From contig CAYZDE010000002.1 of assembly GCA_964477205.1 (NCBI GenBank), forward strand, positions 3,653 to 49,282: a stretch of 45,630 nt of DNA. The letters run 5' to 3'. The notes under the pieces were generated by a model, which searched no databases, was not told where the DNA came from, and saw only the letters and a program-made list of their open reading frames with translations. Origin of the DNA: Candidatus Micrarchaeota archaeon (lineage in GTDB: Archaea > Micrarchaeota > Micrarchaeia > Norongarragalinales > Norongarragalinaceae). Shown here piece after piece: positions 1,133 to 32,180 of the stretch (position 1 is the stretch's first letter; each line of letters starts with the position of its first letter). The position numbers were made by a program, and so were the translations under genes.

Positions 1133-3028
1133 TCAACCCTCTTCCTGAATTTGCTTTTCGGTTTCCTTCTCGAGTTGCTCTATTTCGTTTTCAGCGCCTT
1201 CATCAATGCTCTCGTTGCCCAAGTTGGTTTTCGACTCGGCGATTTTGCGCATGGCTTGTTCGAGCTCGGTTTTGGGCTTGCCCGTCACGTCGTGCAAGGC
1301 CGCGGCGACTTCGGTTATGTACTTGAAGAATATTTTGCGTCGGCGCTCTTGGTCTTCGACCCTGCGCAGCCCGGATAGGTAAGAGCCGACGGCGCGCGCG
1401 GCGTCCATCATTGCCATTCGTATTTCCGCGACGATTTCCTCTTCCGAGGCAATGGCGAGCTTGCCGGCGCCGGTGTAAGGCACGTAAACGCTAACGAAGT
1501 TCACGAGTACGGTTACGGGCTGTTGTGATTGGAAGTCTTTGAGGCCGTAGCGGCGCCAGTCCACGGTTTTGACTGCTTCGTTGATTGCGCAGGCGCCGGA
1601 GTCGAATAGTAAGGGCACGCGGTTAGCGTAGCGCATGTACTCTCCGTCACCCGAACCGGATTCGCCGCATTTCCCTCCGTACGCTACCGCGCACTCGACG
1701 AGGAACGGGATTCCACCGCGGAATACTTTCGGCTTGCGTTGGACTACTTTGAGGAACTCAGGCTTCAATAAGTTCTTTAGTGACTTCTCGAGTTGGTCCG
1801 CGCCTATTGGCTGCAGGGCGGTTAAGTCGGGGTTGTTGAATTTTACGTGTTGGAACGCGTTGATGATGCGTTCGGCTTGGTCCCAAGTGAGGGTGCGCGG
1901 GTGCTTGTTCAAGTCGATTATCCACGGGCTCTTTGCATCATTCGGCTCCGAGCGGCCTATGTATTTTTGCACTTCTTTTGTTTTGGCGGAGCTGATGCGT
2001 GAGAAGTCGGCGGATAAGAACGAGCCGATTTTTCGGGCTTGCGTTATTGCGGCTATGTCCATTAAGTCGCTCGTGGTCAACCCGAGGGGATGCGGCTTAA
2101 CGGCTTTTGCCCTGGACGGGACTTGGTTGCTTGCCCGCGGGAACACGACGATGTTTTTGTCGGGTTCGATGAGCGTGATTTGCGCGTGCGGGTTCGAGAG
2201 CGCGGTGCGGCGTAAGTACTCGTATACTCCGTGTTCGCCTCGGTCGTACGAGACTTCCGCGAATTCGGCTTCGATTCGGAGGCCGCGGAAATTTCCGCGC
2301 TTTTCTTCTAGTTTGTCTACTACGGATTGGTTCTTCTTTACGTCGATGCTCACGAAGCCCTCGTGATACTTGTCCTTGCCTAGGCCGGTTTTGAACTTTG
2401 TGGGCTTGCCCGTGGTGATTTGAGCGAATAGCGTTGCGTAAGCAGCGCCGATTCCTTGCTGGCCTCGCTTTTGCTTTCGTTGGTTGAATTTCGTGCCGGC
2501 GAGGAGTTTTCCCAGTGCGTGGCCTATCTTAGACTTGGGGACGCCGGTGCCATTGTCTTCAACAATTACTTTCAAGTGGCCGGTAGCCCAACGCACGGTT
2601 ATCTCAGAGTCCTCGGCGGGCGGCTTTCTAAATACGACTTGCTTGACGCTTTGCTTGCCGCGGCGGCCGTACTTAACAACGTAGTCGGGACCGCGATCTT
2701 TCTTCACGCTGTTCACGTACACTTCGAAGAGTGCCGCCTTGCCCATGGAGTTCGCTAAGTCAAAGTTGGTTTCCGAGCCGTTCGCGACTGCGAGCGTCGT
2801 TTTGCGTGGCCGCGCGGTGAGTGAGTGGACTTCCACTAAAAGGTCGGGGAGTATCTTCGCGTCCTCGCACGCATCCAGCGAGTTTGTAACGTATTCGTGC
2901 ACGATGGTCGTGAGGCTGCGCGTTTCTCCCGCATACCCCAACATTTGCCTGTTCTTCTTGAAGAATTCGGCTATGGAATACTCCTTAAATGATTGTTCTA
3001 GCTCTGTTTTATCAGCCATTGAAATCAC
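1133..3028 (-). CDS. top6B: DNA topoisomerase VI subunit B (GHKL ATPase), with an extra segment inside the Bergerat fold
   Basis: N terminus [15 protein letters not shown]...[10 protein letters not shown] (N-box) and VEDNGTGVP (G1 box) are typical of Top6B. It is followed by transducer-like sequence and is in an operon with top6A. Confidence 0.9.
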
Positions 3029-3031
3029 GAT

Positions 3032-3523
3032 TCACCTTCTCTGTTTAATGCGCTCTAGGAACGCGTACGCGGTCGAGTGCTCCGACCCCTCGAGTATCTT
3101 GTACACTGCGAGTTTCGCGTCTTGCAAATCCTCGTATCCCCCGAGTATTGCGACGTCGTCTCCGAAAATGCTCACTTCGGCCCCGCTTAATTCCTGCAGG
3201 TTTCTTTTCACCCTGCCTTCCGAACCGATTACGCGGGCTTTGTAACGCTTCACTTTTTTATGCTTGCCTGAATAAAAACGTTTCAAGTTGATGACTTCGA
3301 AGAAGCAATCTTCCTTGAGCAGCTTCAGCGCGCTCTTAGGGGTGAAGCCGTAGCCGATTGCGCGGCACACTTGTTCGGCTTCCCAAACCGCGCTGGAGTC
3401 CCCGTTCACGTCGACCGATCCGTCGGGCTTAATCGACAGTTCCACGCCGGTGCTTTCTTCAATGGCTTCGCGCGCCCGCTTTAATGCATTAACTCTCTTC
3501 GGGGATACAACTAAACAAGCCAT
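3032..3523 (-). CDS. KH-domain RNA-binding protein (aDim2/Pno1-like)
   Basis: 163 aa with two KH-like units; the second carries ARVIGSEGRVKRNLQELSGAEVSI (GxxG-type loop). The size and layout match archaeal Dim2-like proteins. Confidence 0.6.
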   Translation of the reverse strand: MACLVVSPKRVNALKRAREAIEESTGVELSIKPDGSVDVNGDSSAVWEAEQVCRAIGYGFTPKSALKLLKEDCFFEVINLKRFYSGKHKKVKRYKARVIGSEGRVKRNLQELSGAEVSIFGDDVAILGGYEDLQDAKLAVYKILEGSEHSTAYAFLERIKQRR

Positions 3524-3580
3524 TAAATAAACACCATTTCAAGACGCGAGCCTCCTCTATTAATTAAATGACTCGCAAGT

Positions 3581-3588
3581 TATAAATA
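3581..3588 (+). promoter_or_regulatory. TATA-box-like element about 28 nt upstream of ATG 3613 (would give a leaderless transcript)
   Basis: TATAAATA lies in an otherwise non-coding stretch, and its distance to ATG 3613 fits archaeal TATA-to-TSS spacing. Confidence 0.3.
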
Positions 3589-3612
3589 CTTTTGCGCCCT
3601 AGAATCGCTTTA

Positions 3613-3741
3613 ATGGCTGAATCGCGCGGTTTAAAGCAAGATTTAAAGGAGTTGAAGGGCTTGGCTTATGCAGTGCTCTTCATTGCCCTGCTAATCTTAT
3701 TCTTATTGCTTGGCTTCGCGTTGAAGTCGCTTGGTTTTTGA
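3613..3741 (+). CDS. Possible 42-aa single-pass membrane peptide (below the ORF-track length cutoff)
   Basis: The translation is MAESRGLKQDLKELKGLAYAVLFIALLILFLLLGFALKSLGF. It has one clear hydrophobic helix, a TATA-like box at -28, and overlaps the next ORF by 11 nt. Confidence 0.25.
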   Translation: MAESRGLKQDLKELKGLAYAVLFIALLILFLLLGFALKSLGF

Positions 3742-4156: not shown

Positions 4157-4545
4157 TCAACGCGGAGCAAGAGCTTCTCGCCCATGGTCTCCATGTACTG
4201 AATTTCCTTGCCGACTTCAACGTCTTTCATCATCTCGGCGGGCACTTGAACGTCGAAAGTCTCGTACGACTCAACGTCCATTAAAGTCGCGGTGTTCCCG
4301 CTCACGTTCACTATTTGCCCGCGCTTGCGCTCGATAATCGGGATTTCACAGTCCGCGTCGGATGACTTGGCTAGTGAATGCTTTGAACTATCGAATAGGG
4401 ATACGGCGACGACGCTCACTTTTGCGGATCCGTGCTTGCCCGGCTTACTCTTGTCAACGCTCACGATTCGGCACGGGTGGTCGTCGATTAAAACGTACTT
4501 GCCTTTCTTGAGTTCGCCCATTTTAGAGAAAATCTTGTCTACCAA
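4153..4545 (-). CDS. eif5a: Translation initiation factor 5A (aIF5A)
   Basis: 130 aa; KGKYVLIDDHPCRIVSVDKSKPGKHGSAKV contains the hypusine-loop motif (S/T)KxGKHG. Confidence 0.9.
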   Translation of the reverse strand: MVDKIFSKMGELKKGKYVLIDDHPCRIVSVDKSKPGKHGSAKVSVVAVSLFDSSKHSLAKSSDADCEIPIIERKRGQIVNVSGNTATLMDVESYETFDVQVPAEMMKDVEVGKEIQYMETMGEKLLLRVD

Positions 4546-4600
4546 ATTATGCCACCTTTTGAAAACTAATTTTAAGAGAGCAGGCTAGTATATAATAAAA

Positions 4601-5347
4601 ATGTTCCTGGATGCGCACTGCCACGTGGAAAAAGGGTTAAAGTTCCCGCACTACCCCGACTTGGAGGAAGTAGTGGAGCGAATGCGCGTGAAGCGCGTGC
4701 GCGCCGTGAACACCGGGCGCAACTTGAAATCCAATGCAGGAGTGCTCGCAATTGCGCGGGAGTACCCGAACGAGTTTTACGCGGCAACAGGGTTGAGCCC
4801 CCACGACGCGGGCCAAGCGAATCTTGAAGAGGAAGTGGAATTCGTGCGCGCGCATGCTGATGAAATCGTCGCGGTGGGCGAGTGCGGACTCGACCACCAT
4901 TACTTCAAGGATAGGAAAGAGCAAGCGCGCCAGCTAGTTGCCTTTGAGGCAATGCTCGAGCTTGCGGAAGGGCTCGGGAAGCCGATCGTAGTTCACTCGC
5001 GGGACGCTGAAATCGAGGTAATGCAAGTGTTGAATTCGTTCAACGCTACTCCGTTATTGCATTGCCTTCAAAAGCCGAAGGCAGTGCGCCTCGCGCCCGA
5101 CTCTGCGTATTACTCCCTACCAACGCTTAAAAACAGTGCGAGGGTTAAACTAATTGAGACCGTGCCTTTCGAGCGATTGCTGGCTGAAACGGACTCCCCG
5201 TTCTTATGGAAAGGGGGGCGAAACGAGCCCTCGAACGTGATCGAGGTTTACGGGGAAGTCGCCCAAATCAAGGGGATTCCCGTTAACGAAGTCGAAGAAA
5301 GGTTCTGGTTTAATGCGGGTGAATTGTTTTCATGGCAAAAGTCCTAG
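4601..5347 (+). CDS. tatD: TatD-family metal-dependent hydrolase/DNase
   Basis: The N-terminal DAHCH motif, the internal GECGLDHHY motif and VHSRDA are typical of TatD/YcfH. Confidence 0.85.
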   Translation: MFLDAHCHVEKGLKFPHYPDLEEVVERMRVKRVRAVNTGRNLKSNAGVLAIAREYPNEFYAATGLSPHDAGQANLEEEVEFVRAHADEIVAVGECGLDHHYFKDRKEQARQLVAFEAMLELAEGLGKPIVVHSRDAEIEVMQVLNSFNATPLLHCLQKPKAVRLAPDSAYYSLPTLKNSARVKLIETVPFERLLAETDSPFLWKGGRNEPSNVIEVYGEVAQIKGIPVNEVEERFWFNAGELFSWQKS

Positions 5348-5790: not shown

Positions 5791-6374
5791 AAACAGTGCT
5801 ACCAGACGGAAAGGTTTTGAAAAAGGAAATCGACTTAACGCGAGCGAGCTTCCCGTCGCTATTGAAGGAGCTCAAGGAAAAAAAATTCTCGGGTTACGTT
5901 GCAATCACGATTCGCGGGGGAAATGGCCTCGAGGACGGCTTCGTCGCCTTTGACTCGGGAAAAGTAATGGCTGCGGTTTACGAGTACGGCCACGAGGGAA
6001 AAACAATAAAAGGAAAGCCGGCTTTCGAGCGGGCGGTTAACGCAACCGCCGCACCAGCCGCTTACGCGGACGTAATCGAATTGCGCCCGGAGGAAGTGCA
6101 AAATTTCCTTTCAATTGAATCGAACGCCGCTTACGCTCCGAGTGAGGAAGAGTTGGCGAACGCTAAAGCGGAAAAATTCTCCTTGAAGTTTGAAGAGGAA
6201 GTCGCCGGCTTGCCGGCTGAATCCACCCAGCAGTCACTCTTAAACAAATACAAACTCGCGGACGTGCTCGCGGGATTCAAGAAAAAAGAGGATACTGAAA
6301 AACGAGTTGAGCCGAAAATCGAGGAAGAGGAAGGCAGAATAAGGCCGCCATCATTTACGGGGACTAACAAATGA
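5787..6374 (+). CDS. Hypothetical protein with a DUF4388/PATAN-like N-terminal segment and an acidic C-terminal half
   Basis: FPSLLKELKEKKFSGYVAITIRGG...GFVAFDSGKVMAAVYEY resembles the DUF4388 pattern. It is translationally coupled on both sides (GTGA at 5787-5790, ATGA at 6371-6374). Confidence 0.35.
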   Translation: MKTVLPDGKVLKKEIDLTRASFPSLLKELKEKKFSGYVAITIRGGNGLEDGFVAFDSGKVMAAVYEYGHEGKTIKGKPAFERAVNATAAPAAYADVIELRPEEVQNFLSIESNAAYAPSEEELANAKAEKFSLKFEEEVAGLPAESTQQSLLNKYKLADVLAGFKKKEDTEKRVEPKIEEEEGRIRPPSFTGTNK

Positions 6375-27675: not shown

Positions 27676-27723
27676 ACTCAATATATAGTGGTTCGCGAAG
27701 GACAATAGAACAACATGTTGGTG
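27676..27723. promoter_or_regulatory. Candidate NrdR-box pair A (ACTCAATATATAGTGG and GAACAACATGTTGGTG, centres 32 bp apart)
   Basis: By hand count, box 1 matches the published NrdR-box consensus acaCwAtATaTwGtgt at 14 of 16 positions. Box 2 contains the perfect palindrome CAACATGTTG but matches only about 9 of 16. Confidence 0.4.
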
Positions 27724-27759: not shown

Positions 27760-27807
27760 CGTCCATATATGGTGGCTTGCCGTTAGAGCTACTACAACAT
27801 ATCAATT
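27760..27807. promoter_or_regulatory. Candidate NrdR-box pair B (CGTCCATATATGGTGG and CTACAACATATCAATT, centres 32 bp apart)
   Basis: Box 3 contains the perfect palindrome CCATATATGG and matches about 10 of 16 consensus positions. Box 4 also matches about 10 of 16. The spacing is the same as in pair A. Confidence 0.3.
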
Positions 27808-27820
27808 AGGTGGGTTTTAA

Positions 27821-30292
27821 GTGAAATGTCCTGAATGCCAAAGCTCGGATACGCGCGTATTGGATAAGCGAAGCGTTGGAGACGCTGAAACGAACCGCAG
27901 GCGCCGCGAGTGCCTGAAATGCGGCAACCGATTTACTACTTACGAGCGCATTGAAAGCACGAACATTAAAGTCGTCAAGAAGGACGGCAGTTCGGTTGCA
28001 TTCGACGAGGACAAGATTCGCGAGGGAATAGAGCGTTCCGCGGGCAAGCGATTGGATGAGAAACAAATTCAAGCCATAGTCAAGGTAGTAATTGAAAAAG
28101 TGAAGAAGGCGTACCCTTCACAAGACATTCCAACTAGTGAAATAGGTGCGGCAGTGCTCGGCGAATTAAAGCAAGCGGATGAAGTCGCTTACCTGCGCTT
28201 CGCCGCTTTTTACAAGGATTTCGAAGGCGCGGAAGAATTCCAGCGCGAAGCGCGCTCCTTGCGCGAGCCGGACGCGAGGTTGCAAGCCAAATCGTTAATC
28301 ACGAAGATTCGCAAGCGCGACGGCAAGGTAGCGCCGTTCGACCGGGAACGCATCGCCAAAGCCATTTTGGGTGCGGCGAAGGCAATCGGCGGCAAGGACA
28401 AGAACGTTGCCGAGGAGTTAACGGACAAAGTCATTGCTTTCTTGAACTCACATTACTCGGATAAAAGGCCACCCGGGATCGAGGACATCCAGGACGCGGT
28501 GGAGAAGACGCTCATCGAGAACGGCCACGCGGCCACGGCGAAGGCGTACATCCTCTACCGAAAACAACGCGAAAAGGACCGGGAGCGCCGCTTCCTATTC
28601 CTCGACATCAACGAAGTAATGAGCGGCTACCTAACGCAAAGCGACTGGCGCACGAAGGAGAACAGTAACACGGACTACTCATTCTCCGGACTCATGCTTC
28701 ACACCGCGGGGAGCGTAATCGCGAATTACACCTTGAACGAGATGTACCCGTCGGAAGTCGCCGAAGCCCACAAGAAGGGCTACTATCACATTCACGACTT
28801 GTCTTCGGGCGTAGTCGGCTACTGCGCGGGCTGGTCATTGAAGAACTTAATCACGCGCGGTTTCAACGGCGTGCCGAACAAGGTGGACTCGAAGGCGGCG
28901 AAGCACTTGGACGTGCTCGTAAACCAAATGGTGAACTTCATCGGCTGCATGCAAATGGAATTCGCCGGGGCGCAAGCGTTCTCGAGCGTGGACACGCTCC
29001 TAGCCGCATTCATCAAGAAGGATAACCTGACTTACAAGCAAGTCAAGCAGGCAATGCAAGTCATCGTGTTCTCCTTGAACATCCCGTCGCGTTGGGGCAG
29101 CCAAATGCCTTTCTCCAACCTAACCTTCGACTGGATCGTCCCCGAAGACATGAAGAACGATAAGGCAATCGTGGACGGAAAGGAACAAGAATTCACTTAC
29201 GGCGACTGCCAAGCTGAAATGGACATGATTAACAAGGCATTCCTCGAGGTAATGAAAGAAGGGGACGCAAGCGGTCGCATCTTCACTTTCCCCATCCCCA
29301 CTTACAACCTAACCAAGGACTTCGACTGGAACTCGCCGAACGCCAAGCTATTATTCGAGGTCACCGCACGCTATGGCACGCCTTACTTCCAAAACTACAT
29401 AGGAAGCAACCTCGACCCGAAAAGCATTCGCGCGATGTGCTGCAGGCTCAGCATCGACTTGAACGAATTAAGGAGCCGAGGCAACGGCTTATTCGGCGCG
29501 GGAGAACAAACAGGCAGTATCGGCGTCGTGACGATTAACGTGAACCGCCTCGCTTACGAAGCGAAGAACAAGGAGGGTTTCCTCGAGAAAATCGCGCATT
29601 ACATGGAACTCGCCAAAAAATCACTGGAAATCAAGCGTAAGGTAGTCGACCGCAACATGGAAGGCGGGCTAATGCCTTACTCCAAGTCATACCTAGGCAC
29701 TTTCGACAACCACTTCGCCACCATCGGGCTCTGTGGGATGAACGAGGCATGCGTTAACCTAATCGGAAAGAACATCGCAACTCCCGAAGGCAAGAAACTT
29801 ACCATCGAAACCCTGGAATTCATGCGCGCTAAACTCGTTGAATTCCAAAACGAAACCGGCAATATGTACAACCTGGAAGCCACGCCGGCGGAAGGCGCGT
29901 CTTACCGCCTCGCGAAGGCGGATAAAAAAGCGCACGCCGACATTTACTTGAGCGGAGACGACGCCCCGTACCTAACGAATTCAACGCAACTGCCCGTCGA
30001 CCAGACGGACGACTTAATTGCGGCTCTGGAACACCAAAACGACATCCAGCCTTTGTACACCGGCGGAACCGTGTTCCACTCTTTCCTCGGCGAACGCGTG
30101 TCATCAGGGGAAGCATGCAAGCAACTCGTCAAGAAAATCGCGGAGAACACGCGCCTCCCTTACTTCTCGATAACGCCAACGTTCAGTATTTGCCCGGAAC
30201 ACGGGTACATACCCGGCGAGCACTTCACTTGCCCGATGTGCAACTCGAAAACCATAGGAAAGGAAGAGAAATTAGGCGTGCTATCGCAATAA
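27821..30292 (+). CDS. nrdD: Fusion protein: NrdR-like zinc ribbon and ATP-cone, a second ATP-cone, and the class III (anaerobic) ribonucleotide reductase catalytic body, lacking the glycyl-radical C terminus
   Basis: Residues 1-150 carry NrdR signatures (CPEC...RRRREC..CGNRFTTYE; AYLRFAAFYKDFE). Residues from about 160 have the NrdD ATP-cone (KRDGKVAPFDRERI). The catalytic region ends in SICPEHGYIPGEHFTCPMC. GTG start behind an AGGTGG SD. Confidence 0.9.
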   Translation: MKCPECQSSDTRVLDKRSVGDAETNRRRRECLKCGNRFTTYERIESTNIKVVKKDGSSVAFDEDKIREGIERSAGKRLDEKQIQAIVKVVIEKVKKAYPSQDIPTSEIGAAVLGELKQADEVAYLRFAAFYKDFEGAEEFQREARSLREPDARLQAKSLITKIRKRDGKVAPFDRERIAKAILGAAKAIGGKDKNVAEELTDKVIAFLNSHYSDKRPPGIEDIQDAVEKTLIENGHAATAKAYILYRKQREKDRERRFLFLDINEVMSGYLTQSDWRTKENSNTDYSFSGLMLHTAGSVIANYTLNEMYPSEVAEAHKKGYYHIHDLSSGVVGYCAGWSLKNLITRGFNGVPNKVDSKAAKHLDVLVNQMVNFIGCMQMEFAGAQAFSSVDTLLAAFIKKDNLTYKQVKQAMQVIVFSLNIPSRWGSQMPFSNLTFDWIVPEDMKNDKAIVDGKEQEFTYGDCQAEMDMINKAFLEVMKEGDASGRIFTFPIPTYNLTKDFDWNSPNAKLLFEVTARYGTPYFQNYIGSNLDPKSIRAMCCRLSIDLNELRSRGNGLFGAGEQTGSIGVVTINVNRLAYEAKNKEGFLEKIAHYMELAKKSLEIKRKVVDRNMEGGLMPYSKSYLGTFDNHFATIGLCGMNEACVNLIGKNIATPEGKKLTIETLEFMRAKLVEFQNETGNMYNLEATPAEGASYRLAKADKKAHADIYLSGDDAPYLTNSTQLPVDQTDDLIAALEHQNDIQPLYTGGTVFHSFLGERVSSGEACKQLVKKIAENTRLPYFSITPTFSICPEHGYIPGEHFTCPMCNSKTIGKEEKLGVLSQ

Positions 30293-30307
30293 AAAAGGTG
30301 ACATAAC

Positions 30308-30487
30308 ATGAGTGAAAATGGAATCTGCGGGAAAAGATGCGAGGTATACTCGCGTGTAGTCGGGTACTACCGCCCGGTACAAAACTGGAACATCGGCAAG
30401 CGCGAGGAATTCAAAGACCGCCTGGAATTCACTGAAGAAAAAGCGCGCGACAAGCAATTCGGCGACTGCGCCACTCAAAAAGAGTGA
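30308..30487 (+). CDS. 59-aa stand-alone NrdD C-terminal peptide carrying the glycyl-radical motif
   Basis: The translation is MSENGICGKRCEVYSRVVGYYRPVQNWNIGKREEFKDRLEF... The RVxGY radical motif and the WN.GK..E box are the canonical NrdD C terminus. AGGTGA lies 6 nt upstream of the ATG. The ORF is in the same frame as the large ORF but is separated from it by TAA and TGA. Confidence 0.65.
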   Translation: MSENGICGKRCEVYSRVVGYYRPVQNWNIGKREEFKDRLEFTEEKARDKQFGDCATQKE

Positions 30488-30492
30488 ATTAA

Positions 30493-31185
30493 ATGAACCT
30501 CGCGGGCCTGCAAAAACAAACCCTAGTCGACTACCCGGGTAAAGTCGCTTGCACCGTATTCACGCAAGGGTGCAATTACCGCTGCGGCTACTGCCACAAC
30601 CCCGACCTGATACCAATGAAGGGCAACACGCCGGCATTGCCTACGGACGAATTTTTGGAGTGGTTAAACAACCGAAAAAAGTGGTTGGATGGGGTTTGTG
30701 TTACCGGGGGCGAGCCGACTCTACAAACGGACTTGCCCGAATTCGCGCGTTCCGTGAAGGAAGCCGGCTTCTTATTCAAGCTCGACAGCAACGGCTCGAA
30801 CCCGGCAATGTTAAAGAAAATGTTTGACGAGGAGTTAATTGACTTCCTCGCAATGGACATTAAAGCACCCTTGGAAAAATACGAGAACATAGTCGGCCCC
30901 GGCATTAACAAGAAAGCAATTGAAGAGAGCATTCAACTCATTCGAGAGCGAGCGCCGGACTACGAGTTCCGCACTACCATCGCACCGGATTGGTACTCAA
31001 AGGAGGACGCAATCGCGATTGGCGAGTGGCTCAAGGGCTCGAAAGCTTATTACCTACAGAACTTCGTTGCCGAGCACGCGGCGGACCCAGCGTTCAGGAG
31101 CAAGCACGGTTTCTCGCGCGAAGAACTCAAAGAATTAAAAGTCATCCTAGAACCGTACTTCGACGAAGTCGGCATTCGAGAGTAA
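30493..31185 (+). CDS. nrdG: Anaerobic ribonucleotide reductase activating protein (radical SAM)
   Basis: CNYRCGYCHNP (CxxxCxxC) and GVCVTGGEPT; located immediately downstream of the nrdD parts. Confidence 0.9.
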   Translation: MNLAGLQKQTLVDYPGKVACTVFTQGCNYRCGYCHNPDLIPMKGNTPALPTDEFLEWLNNRKKWLDGVCVTGGEPTLQTDLPEFARSVKEAGFLFKLDSNGSNPAMLKKMFDEELIDFLAMDIKAPLEKYENIVGPGINKKAIEESIQLIRERAPDYEFRTTIAPDWYSKEDAIAIGEWLKGSKAYYLQNFVAEHAADPAFRSKHGFSREELKELKVILEPYFDEVGIRE

Positions 31186-31222: not shown

Positions 31223-31245
31223 AAAAGTGTGGTCACCTCTTTTTG
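31223..31245. repeat. Left arm of the imperfect inverted repeat flanking the Fic gene (AAAAGTGTGGTCACCTCTTTTTG)
   Basis: Its reverse complement, CAAAAAGAGGTGACCACACTTTT, aligns with 32183-32206 with one 2-nt indel and about 3 mismatches. It overlaps the last codons and stop of the Fic gene. Confidence 0.45.
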
Positions 31246-32180
31246 AATGTTTTCTCCAAGGCGCGGTACTCTTTAAGTAATAACTCAATAGTCGGGCGCA
31301 GGTTTTGGCGGTGCTCGTACTCTTGCAATGAAGCGTAGTACTCACGGCGGTGCTTCAACTCGATGTTAACCGGCGGCAAGCCATGCTTTAACAAAACATT
31401 ATTCAACAATAAACGCCCGACCCTGCCATTACCGTCTTGAAACGGGTGAACATTCTCAAACTGGTTGTGCACCACCGCCGCCAAAACCAATGGAGGATAT
31501 TTCTTCTTGTTCCCATCATACCACTTCACAAGTTCTCCTAACAAACTCTTGACGCGAGTTGACGGCGCGCCTCGATGGATTACGCGGCCCAGCGAGTCGA
31601 CGACCGCGACTTCAACTCCCTTGCGCCTGAACTTGCCAGCGAAGCCCTTTGAATTCTTGAAAACGATTTCGTGTAGTTTCGCCATTAATTGCAGCGACAC
31701 GTGCTCTTTTGTTTCTCGAAGGTAATCTATTGCTTCGGCTACCCCGTAAGTTTCCGCAACTTCCCATTTCGCTCGGTCGGCGGGCCACTCGTCGCGTTCG
31801 AGTATTGATTTAGCCTCTCTAGCGGTAACCGTGGAGCCTTCAATGGCGTTCGTGTCGAACGCGAACGCTTCAGTGAACTTTAACCAGTCTTTCTCGCTTA
31901 AGTGCTTGACCTGAATCGCGCGCTTAACATCCGCCAAAACCCGCAACTCTCCTAATTCTTGAAGCGATAAAACCGTGTGAAACGGGTCTCGAATGAATTT
32001 TAGTAAACGGACGCGTTCGCGAAGCTCTTTTTCAACAACAACGCGCTTTACGGCTAAATCCTTCTTTGAAAGGTTGGAGCCCAAGTAAGCGCGAATTTTT
32101 TTTACCTTGCCCGACTCGCGGTAAGAATGAGCCAAGTAATACTTTTTCTTGCCTTCGACCGCGCGAACTTCCAAGTACAT
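31233..32180 (-). CDS. Fic/DOC-family protein (probable AMPylase)
   Basis: The canonical Fic motif HPFQDGNGRVGR is present within a 315-aa protein. Confidence 0.85.
   Translation of the reverse strand: MYLEVRAVEGKKKYYLAHSYRESGKVKKIRAYLGSNLSKKDLAVKRVVVEKELRERVRLLKFIRDPFHTVLSLQELGELRVLADVKRAIQVKHLSEKDWLKFTEAFAFDTNAIEGSTVTAREAKSILERDEWPADRAKWEVAETYGVAEAIDYLRETKEHVSLQLMAKLHEIVFKNSKGFAGKFRRKGVEVAVVDSLGRVIHRGAPSTRVKSLLGELVKWYDGNKKKYPPLVLAAVVHNQFENVHPFQDGNGRVGRLLLNNVLLKHGLPPVNIELKHRREYYASLQEYEHRQNLRPTIELLLKEYRALEKTFKKR

Follow-up and report, generated by a model that had tools for sequence, protein, structure and literature searches.

How does an anaerobic (class III) ribonucleotide reductase (RNR) operate when the gene for its catalytic barrel ends before the glycyl-radical loop, and the loop is encoded by a small open reading frame (ORF) immediately downstream? 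This question is raised by the nrdD locus in a stretch of 45,630 nt from a Candidatus Micrarchaeota archaeon (assembly GCA_964477205.1, contig CAYZDE010000002.1, positions 3,653 to 49,282 of the forward strand), hereafter called the window; all coordinates without a locus name refer to it. A preliminary description of the window had proposed two separate polypeptides, one for the barrel and one for the radical-bearing segment. We compared the locus with cellular and viral relatives, and conclude that it very probably encodes a naturally two-subunit class III RNR that arose by an old, conserved gene fission.

The glycyl-radical loop lies on a separate ORF between nrdD and nrdG

The nrdD body (27821-30292, plus strand) starts with GTG, encodes 823 aa and ends with the TAA at 30290-30292. 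It comprises an NrdR-like zinc ribbon and ATP-cone (residues 1-145), a second ATP-cone (approximately residues 162-251) and the NRDD barrel (residues 280-810). Its final residues are SICPEHGYIPGEHFTCPMCNSKTIGKEEKLGVLSQ (also given as CPEHGYIPGEHFTCPMCNSKTIGKEEKLGVLSQ); the tail extends 16 residues past a CPMC motif, and the glycyl-radical loop is absent from the body. The junction (30290-30307, plus strand) consists of the TAA and a 15-nt spacer (AAA AGG TGA CAT AAC; 30293-30307). Within this spacer lie another in-frame stop (TGA, 30299-30301) and the Shine-Dalgarno (SD) motif AGGTGA (30296-30301), the latter 6 nt upstream of an ATG at 30308. This ATG opens the small ORF (30308-30487, plus strand), the putative small radical subunit of 59 aa, whose N-terminal part reads MSENGICGKRCEVYSRVVGYYRPVQNWNIGKREEFKDRLEF. 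It carries Cys7 (30326-30328), Cys11 (30338-30340) and the predicted radical glycine Gly19 (30362-30364) within the motif RVVGY, followed by a WNxGKxxEF box and a variable tail. The gene for the radical-SAM activase, nrdG (30493-31185, plus strand), begins 5 nt further downstream and was identified by TIGR02495 (NrdG2) in NCBIfam (E = 2.2e-64; 216.3 bits, cut-off 131.15) as well as by Radical_SAM and Fer4_12 in Pfam. The end of the large ORF, the TAA, the spacer with its second stop, the ATG and the AGGTGA motif are all present in the sequence as first described.

Together, the body and the small ORF tile the whole NRDD profile of Pfam (PF13597): the body covers profile positions 1-530 of 562 (E = 1.3e-170) and the small ORF positions 527-562 (E = 6.9e-11). 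The coverage picture in NCBIfam agreed with that in Pfam (NF006126 on the body, 1031.8 bits, cut-off 548), and the other Pfam matches on the body were PF22811 and, in two stretches, PF03477. The Gly_radical family of pyruvate formate-lyase (PFL) type did not match the small ORF at E ≤ 0.01, PF13597 being its only match. On the body lie the regulatory domains, the barrel including its finger-loop cysteines, and the initial part of the C-terminal zinc ribbon; the small protein contributes the RVVGY glycine loop, the WNxGK helix and a conserved Cys beside the ribbon.

The three genes are co-oriented and closely packed, each has its own start codon, and an SD precedes the small ORF. This SD, a 6-nt match, is among the best in the window, where a match of at least 5 nt was found at approximately 9 of 34 gene starts, compared to 4.6% of random 20-mers. 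Neither a terminator-like nor a promoter-like site was found at the junction on the plus strand.

The split layout is conserved among cellular relatives

We found that 51 of the 120 closest NrdD bodies (at least 69% identity) stop 6-50 residues past the motif C..HGY..GEH..C[P/N], while 68 of the 120 closest cores are unsplit. In a coarse neighbour-joining tree, 49 of the 51 split bodies fell into one clade, with approximately five state changes overall. One cluster of split bodies, 76% identical, has been deposited as Candidatus Micrarchaeota.

Eight cellular loci were read at the DNA level (the window, L081, L082, L085, L087, L252, L253 and L254), and all eight have the gene order body, small ORF, nrdG. 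Their spacers measure 15, 12, 20, -4, 12, 19, 2 and -4 nt, respectively, and the frames differ. SD-like motifs were present upstream of the small ORF in the five junctions inspected for them. Two of the loci, L085 and L254, adjoin MCM and are therefore archaeal, and L087, near lgt, is probably bacterial. The comparison with relatives bore out the preliminary description as regards the split and its SD; its further argument, that preservation of the frame speaks for function, proved incidental, since relatives carry the small ORF in other frames and even in 4-nt overlaps with the body. Two independent ENA assemblies (ERZ27316532 and ERZ27315773) also carry the junction DNA of the window with 100% identity at the level of the assembled sequences, which speaks against an artefact of this one assembly.

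The family of the small protein is large. When the small ORF was used as query in a word-index search, the top 120 matches measured 39-101 aa, many of them on long contigs. Among 1.84 billion representative proteins, an exhaustive profile search found 5131 matches at E ≤ 1e-3, and 149 of the best 150 were 48-234 aa in length. Members share the pattern of a Met, a short leader (6 residues in the window; median 5) and C-G-x-x-C-E-V-Y-S-R-V-V-G-Y-[YF]-R-P-V-x-x-W-N-x-G-K-x-x-E-F. In the family alignment (A1), S15, R16, V18, G19, Y20, R22, P23, W27, N28, G30, K31, E34 and R38 are invariant. Compared to its nearest relatives, the small ORF showed a proportion of nonsynonymous differences (pN) of 0.06-0.13 with synonymous sites near saturation, giving a ratio of nonsynonymous to synonymous substitution rates (dN/dS) of approximately 0.04-0.07; judged by these rates, it is under strong purifying selection. 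Overall, conservation and selection of the split layout extend across many uncultivated archaea as well as some bacteria and viruses.

Several variants were observed in these relatives. Four of the 68 unsplit cores carry an insertion of 8-17 residues between CP and CG, and unsplit NrdDs with such an insertion, placed exactly there in the second zinc knuckle, were seen in L001, L002, P0311, P0326, P0345 and P0372. They come from Micrarchaeota, Woesearchaeota and relatives (the match in L001 and L002 begins at 5001) and resemble intermediates in the evolution of the split form, or products of its re-fusion. The bodies of two split relatives, L081 (approximately 2777-3723) and L085 (approximately 1844-2784), contain an insertion of approximately 315 aa at one shared point of the barrel, between residues 166 and 167 of the window core; its size and position suggest an intein. 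At L252, an 83-aa ORF (4800-5051) with weak glutaredoxin- or thioredoxin-like matches lies between the small radical subunit and nrdG and may encode a reductant for the enzyme. The small radical module also occurs with its C terminus fused to glutaredoxin (P0150, 147 aa) or to a deoxycytidine monophosphate (dCMP)/cytidine deaminase (P0174, 192 aa), and further small-module proteins of 139-182 aa carry extensions without a domain assignment. We also considered whether small subunits are enriched in C-terminal Cys tails, as a possible redox shuttle; no clear enrichment was seen (36% compared to 40% of unsplit relatives).

Position of the break relative to the C-terminal zinc ribbon

The split was originally placed between the two Cys pairs of the zinc site. 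This was imprecise, as the body already holds a complete CPxC: it contains CPEH...CPMC, that is, a Cys/His knuckle and a complete CPxC, and the small ORF contributes CGKRC. Unsplit relatives have the motif C-x-x-H-G-Y...G-E-x-x-x-C-P-x-C-G-x-x-[T/C]-E-V-Y-S-R-[IV]-V-G-Y, and in the archaeal split clade the C, the H and the C-P stay on the body, with the small protein beginning a few residues before the CG. By homology, the break therefore lies within the ribbon's second knuckle or immediately behind it.

The candidate zinc ligands on the body (30191-30241, plus strand) are Cys791 (30191-30193), His794 (30200-30202), Cys804 (30230-30232) and the lineage-specific Cys807 (30239-30241), and those on the small ORF are Cys7 and Cys11. 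The first three (C531, H534 and C544 in the numbering of a fused construct) were invariant across 40 sequences and correspond to C594, H598 and C605 of Thermotoga maritima NrdD, with which, together with C608, the motif of the unsplit relatives aligns. The NrdD of phage T4 has a four-Cys zinc site, and from this and the alignment we infer that the four T. maritima residues are zinc ligands. In an alignment with unsplit relatives (A2), Cys7 of the small ORF aligns with the canonical fourth zinc ligand, whose column is invariant. Gly19 aligned with Gly621 of T. maritima NrdD (profile of A2 against 4COI, E = 3.3e-55), the radical site of that enzyme (PMC4493059).

Counted relative to the motif SR, 156 of 237 small proteins have a Cys at both -8 and -4, 57 only at -8 and 24 only at -4, and none lacks both. 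A Cys at -4 occurs in 76% of the small proteins compared to 10 of 68 close unsplit relatives. Cys807, the last residue of CPMC, is found in the window's own sub-clade and a few others, and most split bodies are without it. Because each small protein checked keeps a Cys beside the radical loop, it is plausible that the zinc site is composite, with ligands from both chains, and it may clamp them together.

We modelled the body core and the small ORF with AlphaFold2 as a covalent fusion made by hand and guided by unsplit homologues. The model reached a mean predicted local distance difference test (pLDDT) score of 81.6 and a predicted template modelling (pTM) score of 0.86, with pLDDT below 50 only at the junction residues 551-564. 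Its best structural matches were NrdD structures, at template modelling (TM) scores of 0.70-0.75, and the model shows that the two parts are compatible with the canonical NrdD fold. A sequence search of the PDB with a 103-aa concatenated junction peptide gave no match, whereas the profile search with A2 did.

Stand-alone and split copies in viruses

To survey viral copies, we took the best 80 IMG/VR loci matching the small-protein profile and applied a lax threshold for the barrel and NrdG. In 28 of the 80, neither was detected within approximately 6 kb of the small gene. These orphans bear the CGxxC...RVVGY signature of small subunits in split systems and have phage genes as neighbours (terminase and portal, also portal, DNA polymerase A and helicase). 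They include radical peptides of 40-70 aa in L083, L084 and L089 (4001-4141) and further such peptides in L090, L095, L098, L105, L121, L122, L138 and others, with the motif near 6025 in most. In a second viral scan, which detects only close relatives of the clade, no contig names were common to orphans and carriers of an NrdD body.

The archaeal virus ANMV-1 provides a further case (L251, 3686-4120; KP703175.1). Its 144-aa protein AJP62049.1, annotated as "anaerobic ribonucleoside triphosphate reductase", consists only of a stand-alone zinc ribbon (CHDC...CPKC) and a glycyl-radical loop. The authors who described ANMV-1 had read this protein as evidence for a virus-encoded, oxygen-sensitive RNR (PMC4372165). 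As far as their sequences go, the viral copies fit a radical domain that is modular and exchangeable.

In viruses, too, relatives of this NrdD clade are often divided close to the point seen in the cellular bodies: 40 were unsplit, 17 were split with an adjacent small ORF, and two were split with a gap of 1.4-2 kb. Viral NrdDs split just past a complete CPxC knuckle were found in L208 (approximately 4209-4580), L237 (approximately 4560-5000), L209-L227, L238 and L244-L246. In L208, an HNH_3/NUMOD4 homing endonuclease gene directly follows the stop codon of the body, and in L237 a sequence that weakly matches LAGLIDADG breaks up the RVMG motif. Because the endonuclease gene of L208 follows the body stop, insertion of an endonuclease is a plausible origin of such fissions, by analogy with phage Aeh1 nrdA (PMC3653736).

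Alternative explanations

The alternative that survives best, although we regard it as unlikely, is that the small protein is a spare of the GrcA/YfiD type, which rescues an oxygen-cleaved complete NrdD encoded elsewhere, the adjacent truncated body being secondary. The viral stand-alone genes next to portal, terminase, DNA polymerase or helicase and the ANMV-1 radical domain favour it, and T4 Y06I, a spare for PFL, is a viral precedent (cited in PMC13450708). However, all eight cellular loci place the small gene between a radical-less body and nrdG, and such a body would need the small protein for any activity. The small ORF moreover matches NRDD, not the PFL-type family, and the window contains no intact NrdD. 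The likeness to GrcA that the preliminary description had drawn therefore holds only in part: at this locus the small protein appears to be an obligatory radical subunit and not a GrcA-like spare, because the adjacent body lacks a radical domain of its own, whereas the viral orphans seem closer to the spare-part idea than the cellular small subunit.

A less probable alternative is that recoding or splicing (readthrough, frameshifting, a split intein or an intron) yields one polypeptide after all. Both ORFs share one frame in the window, and phage nrdD genes with group I introns, inteins and homing endonucleases are known (PMC3653736). Readthrough would, however, be needed at two different stops, TAA and TGA, and in relatives the small ORF lies in other frames or overlaps the body. 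The 15-nt spacer is too short for an intron, and neither the body tail (16 residues here, 6-50 in relatives) nor the small-ORF leader has nearly the length needed for its half of a split intein (approximately 100 aa and 35 aa).

The least credible explanation, a recently inactivated pseudogene or stops due to sequencing or assembly error, with the small ORF as a remnant C terminus, draws on the two stops within 15 nt and the in-frame downstream part, which resemble a nonsense mutation in a continuous gene, but it is countered by the identical junction in two further assemblies, by 51 diverged relatives that stop at the same place, by junctions whose length and frame vary up to 4-nt overlaps, for which a point mutation cannot account, by a dN/dS of approximately 0.05 with saturated synonymous sites, and by small proteins that have their own Met, short leader and SD. 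Taken together, the conserved split, the identical junctions, the differing frames and the low dN/dS exclude a pseudogene, an assembly artefact and frame-dependent recoding.

A two-subunit enzyme and its possible mechanism

That the barrel and the radical segment are two functional polypeptides, as the preliminary description had suggested, is highly likely in light of the 51 split bodies, the gene order of the cellular loci, the dN/dS values and the identical junction. Two further properties, bridging by zinc and replaceability of the small chain, are more tentative, and we put them at slightly less than an even chance.

In the mechanism that we propose, the small protein would dock with its glycine loop inside the barrel, similar to the covalently attached domain of unsplit NrdD, and would partly be held through a zinc site with ligands from both chains. 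NrdG would abstract a hydrogen from Gly19, with the small protein either free or docked, and the radical would then be handed to the finger-loop cysteine for catalysis. Oxygen cuts glycyl-radical proteins at the radical glycine; in the split layout, only the 59-residue chain would therefore be destroyed, and a new copy could take its place with no need to make the 823-aa body again. Such replacement of the small chain would be a plausible selective advantage.

Several points weigh against this interpretation. The complete CPMC knuckle with Cys807 means that the zinc site may not need a Cys of the small subunit here. The structure model is a covalent fusion and says nothing on the association of separate chains, and we infer that the two chains assemble, that zinc bridges them and that NrdG activates the free peptide. 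The 45.6-kb window, in which no intact NrdD was found, is the only part of the genome in view, so that a further full-length NrdD may exist elsewhere. Finally, in a scan of GTDB genomes with the small-protein alignment, the matches listed (at least 600 rows) were all unsplit NrdDs, among them L001 and L002 with their insertion at the point of the later split.

The N-terminal NrdR module and the surroundings of the locus

A complete NrdR module (zinc ribbon plus ATP-cone; 27821-28255, residues 1-145) is fused to the N terminus of the NrdD body. It scored 141.9 bits with TIGR00244 (cut-off 124.65) and precedes the enzyme's own ATP-cone. The same N-terminal fusion was observed in L081, L082, L253 and many database relatives. 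It is odd to find a transcription-factor module on the enzyme that it normally regulates. An NrdR-box-like palindrome, ACTCAATATATAGTGG (27676-27691), with two mismatches to the consensus, lies 130 nt upstream of nrdD, and the similar CCATATATGGTGG (27762-27774) lies 83 bp downstream of the palindrome. The search for NrdR boxes upstream of nrdD gave one weak palindromic match, which was equalled in 16 of 100 shuffles, and the NrdR-box-like motifs could simply be archaeal TATA elements.

On the other side of the locus, a Fic/DOC-family gene (31233-32180, minus strand; motif HPFQDGNGRVGR) converges on the nrdG end of the operon. Two further genes mark the window as archaeal, those for subunit B of topoisomerase (Topo) VI and for an elongation factor of the aEF1A type.

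Comparison with known systems and significance

The locus shares with canonical single-chain class III RNRs (T. maritima, 4COI/4U3E; phage T4, 1H78; P. copri, 8P23) the barrel, the cysteines of the finger loop, a predicted zinc ribbon at the C terminus, the RVxGY loop and a radical-SAM activase encoded alongside. It differs in that a separate 59-aa chain bears the radical loop and, going by the alignment, the fourth zinc ligand, that the body ends past the zinc-ribbon knuckles, and that the N terminus adds a full NrdR-like module.

Similar to the small ORF, GrcA/YfiD and T4 Y06I are small stand-alone homologues of the C-terminal domain of a glycyl-radical enzyme that also occur in viruses, and all are presumably activated by the cognate activase. 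However, GrcA is homologous to PFL and the small ORF to NrdD, and GrcA supplements a complete PFL after oxygen cleavage, whereas the partner body of the small ORF never had the domain. According to a June 2026 review, formate lyases alone among the glycyl-radical enzyme classes have known spare parts (PMC13450708).

Two-gene RNRs are known from other classes. In the class II NrdJa/NrdJb of Pseudomonas aeruginosa and others, the zinc-finger-containing C-terminal part is likewise encoded by the next gene, and this split is functional and conserved (PMC9669993). NrdJb differs in carrying a redox Cys pair and an IscU-like domain and no radical, the radical source of NrdJ being adenosylcobalamin in the large chain. 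NrdA-a/NrdA-b of Aeromonas phage Aeh1 likewise form a functional RNR from two ORFs without splicing, the gene having been split by the homing endonuclease mobE, and phage nrdD genes are split by introns and inteins (PMC3653736). In contrast to Aeh1, a sporadic phage event, the window has no mobile element, intron or intein, only the 15-nt spacer, and the fission is inherited across a large, mostly archaeal cellular clade. In the literature searched, which was mostly outside subscription journals, we came across no account of a class III RNR whose radical domain has a gene of its own.

To our knowledge, every characterised glycyl-radical enzyme has its radical glycine and its barrel on the same chain. 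The only autonomous radical domains known are the GrcA-type spares for PFL (PMC13450708). A class III RNR with its radical on a separate 59-aa protein would alter this one-chain picture. It is an old problem by what route the buried glycine loop gets out of the barrel and reaches the activase, and the split form offers a practical handle on it: the loop is here naturally a small, soluble putative substrate of NrdG, suited to structural and kinetic work.

There are also consequences for annotation. Split bodies are deposited as if complete, labelled in GenBank as "ribonucleoside triphosphate reductase" (e.g., PIO03221.1), and the 144-aa viral domain was taken for an RNR. The orphan viral copies point to an unrecognised class of auxiliary genes.

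A more speculative idea, which we hold to be possible although rather doubtful, is that the small protein is a free-standing "radical cartridge" of approximately 6 kDa that is activated by NrdG off the enzyme, docks through the zinc site and is replaced after oxygen damage, with viruses carrying copies of their own. If true, viral cartridges, alone or fused to glutaredoxin or dCMP deaminase, could boost or take over the deoxynucleotide synthesis of the host, and viruses would not need to encode a reductase of 600-800 aa. It would be the first spare-part-like system for an RNR, and viral auxiliary metabolic genes would gain a new kind. For the cellular hosts, the two-chain arrangement suggests a way in which small-genome anaerobes living where oxic and anoxic zones meet might keep the cost of oxygen damage low.

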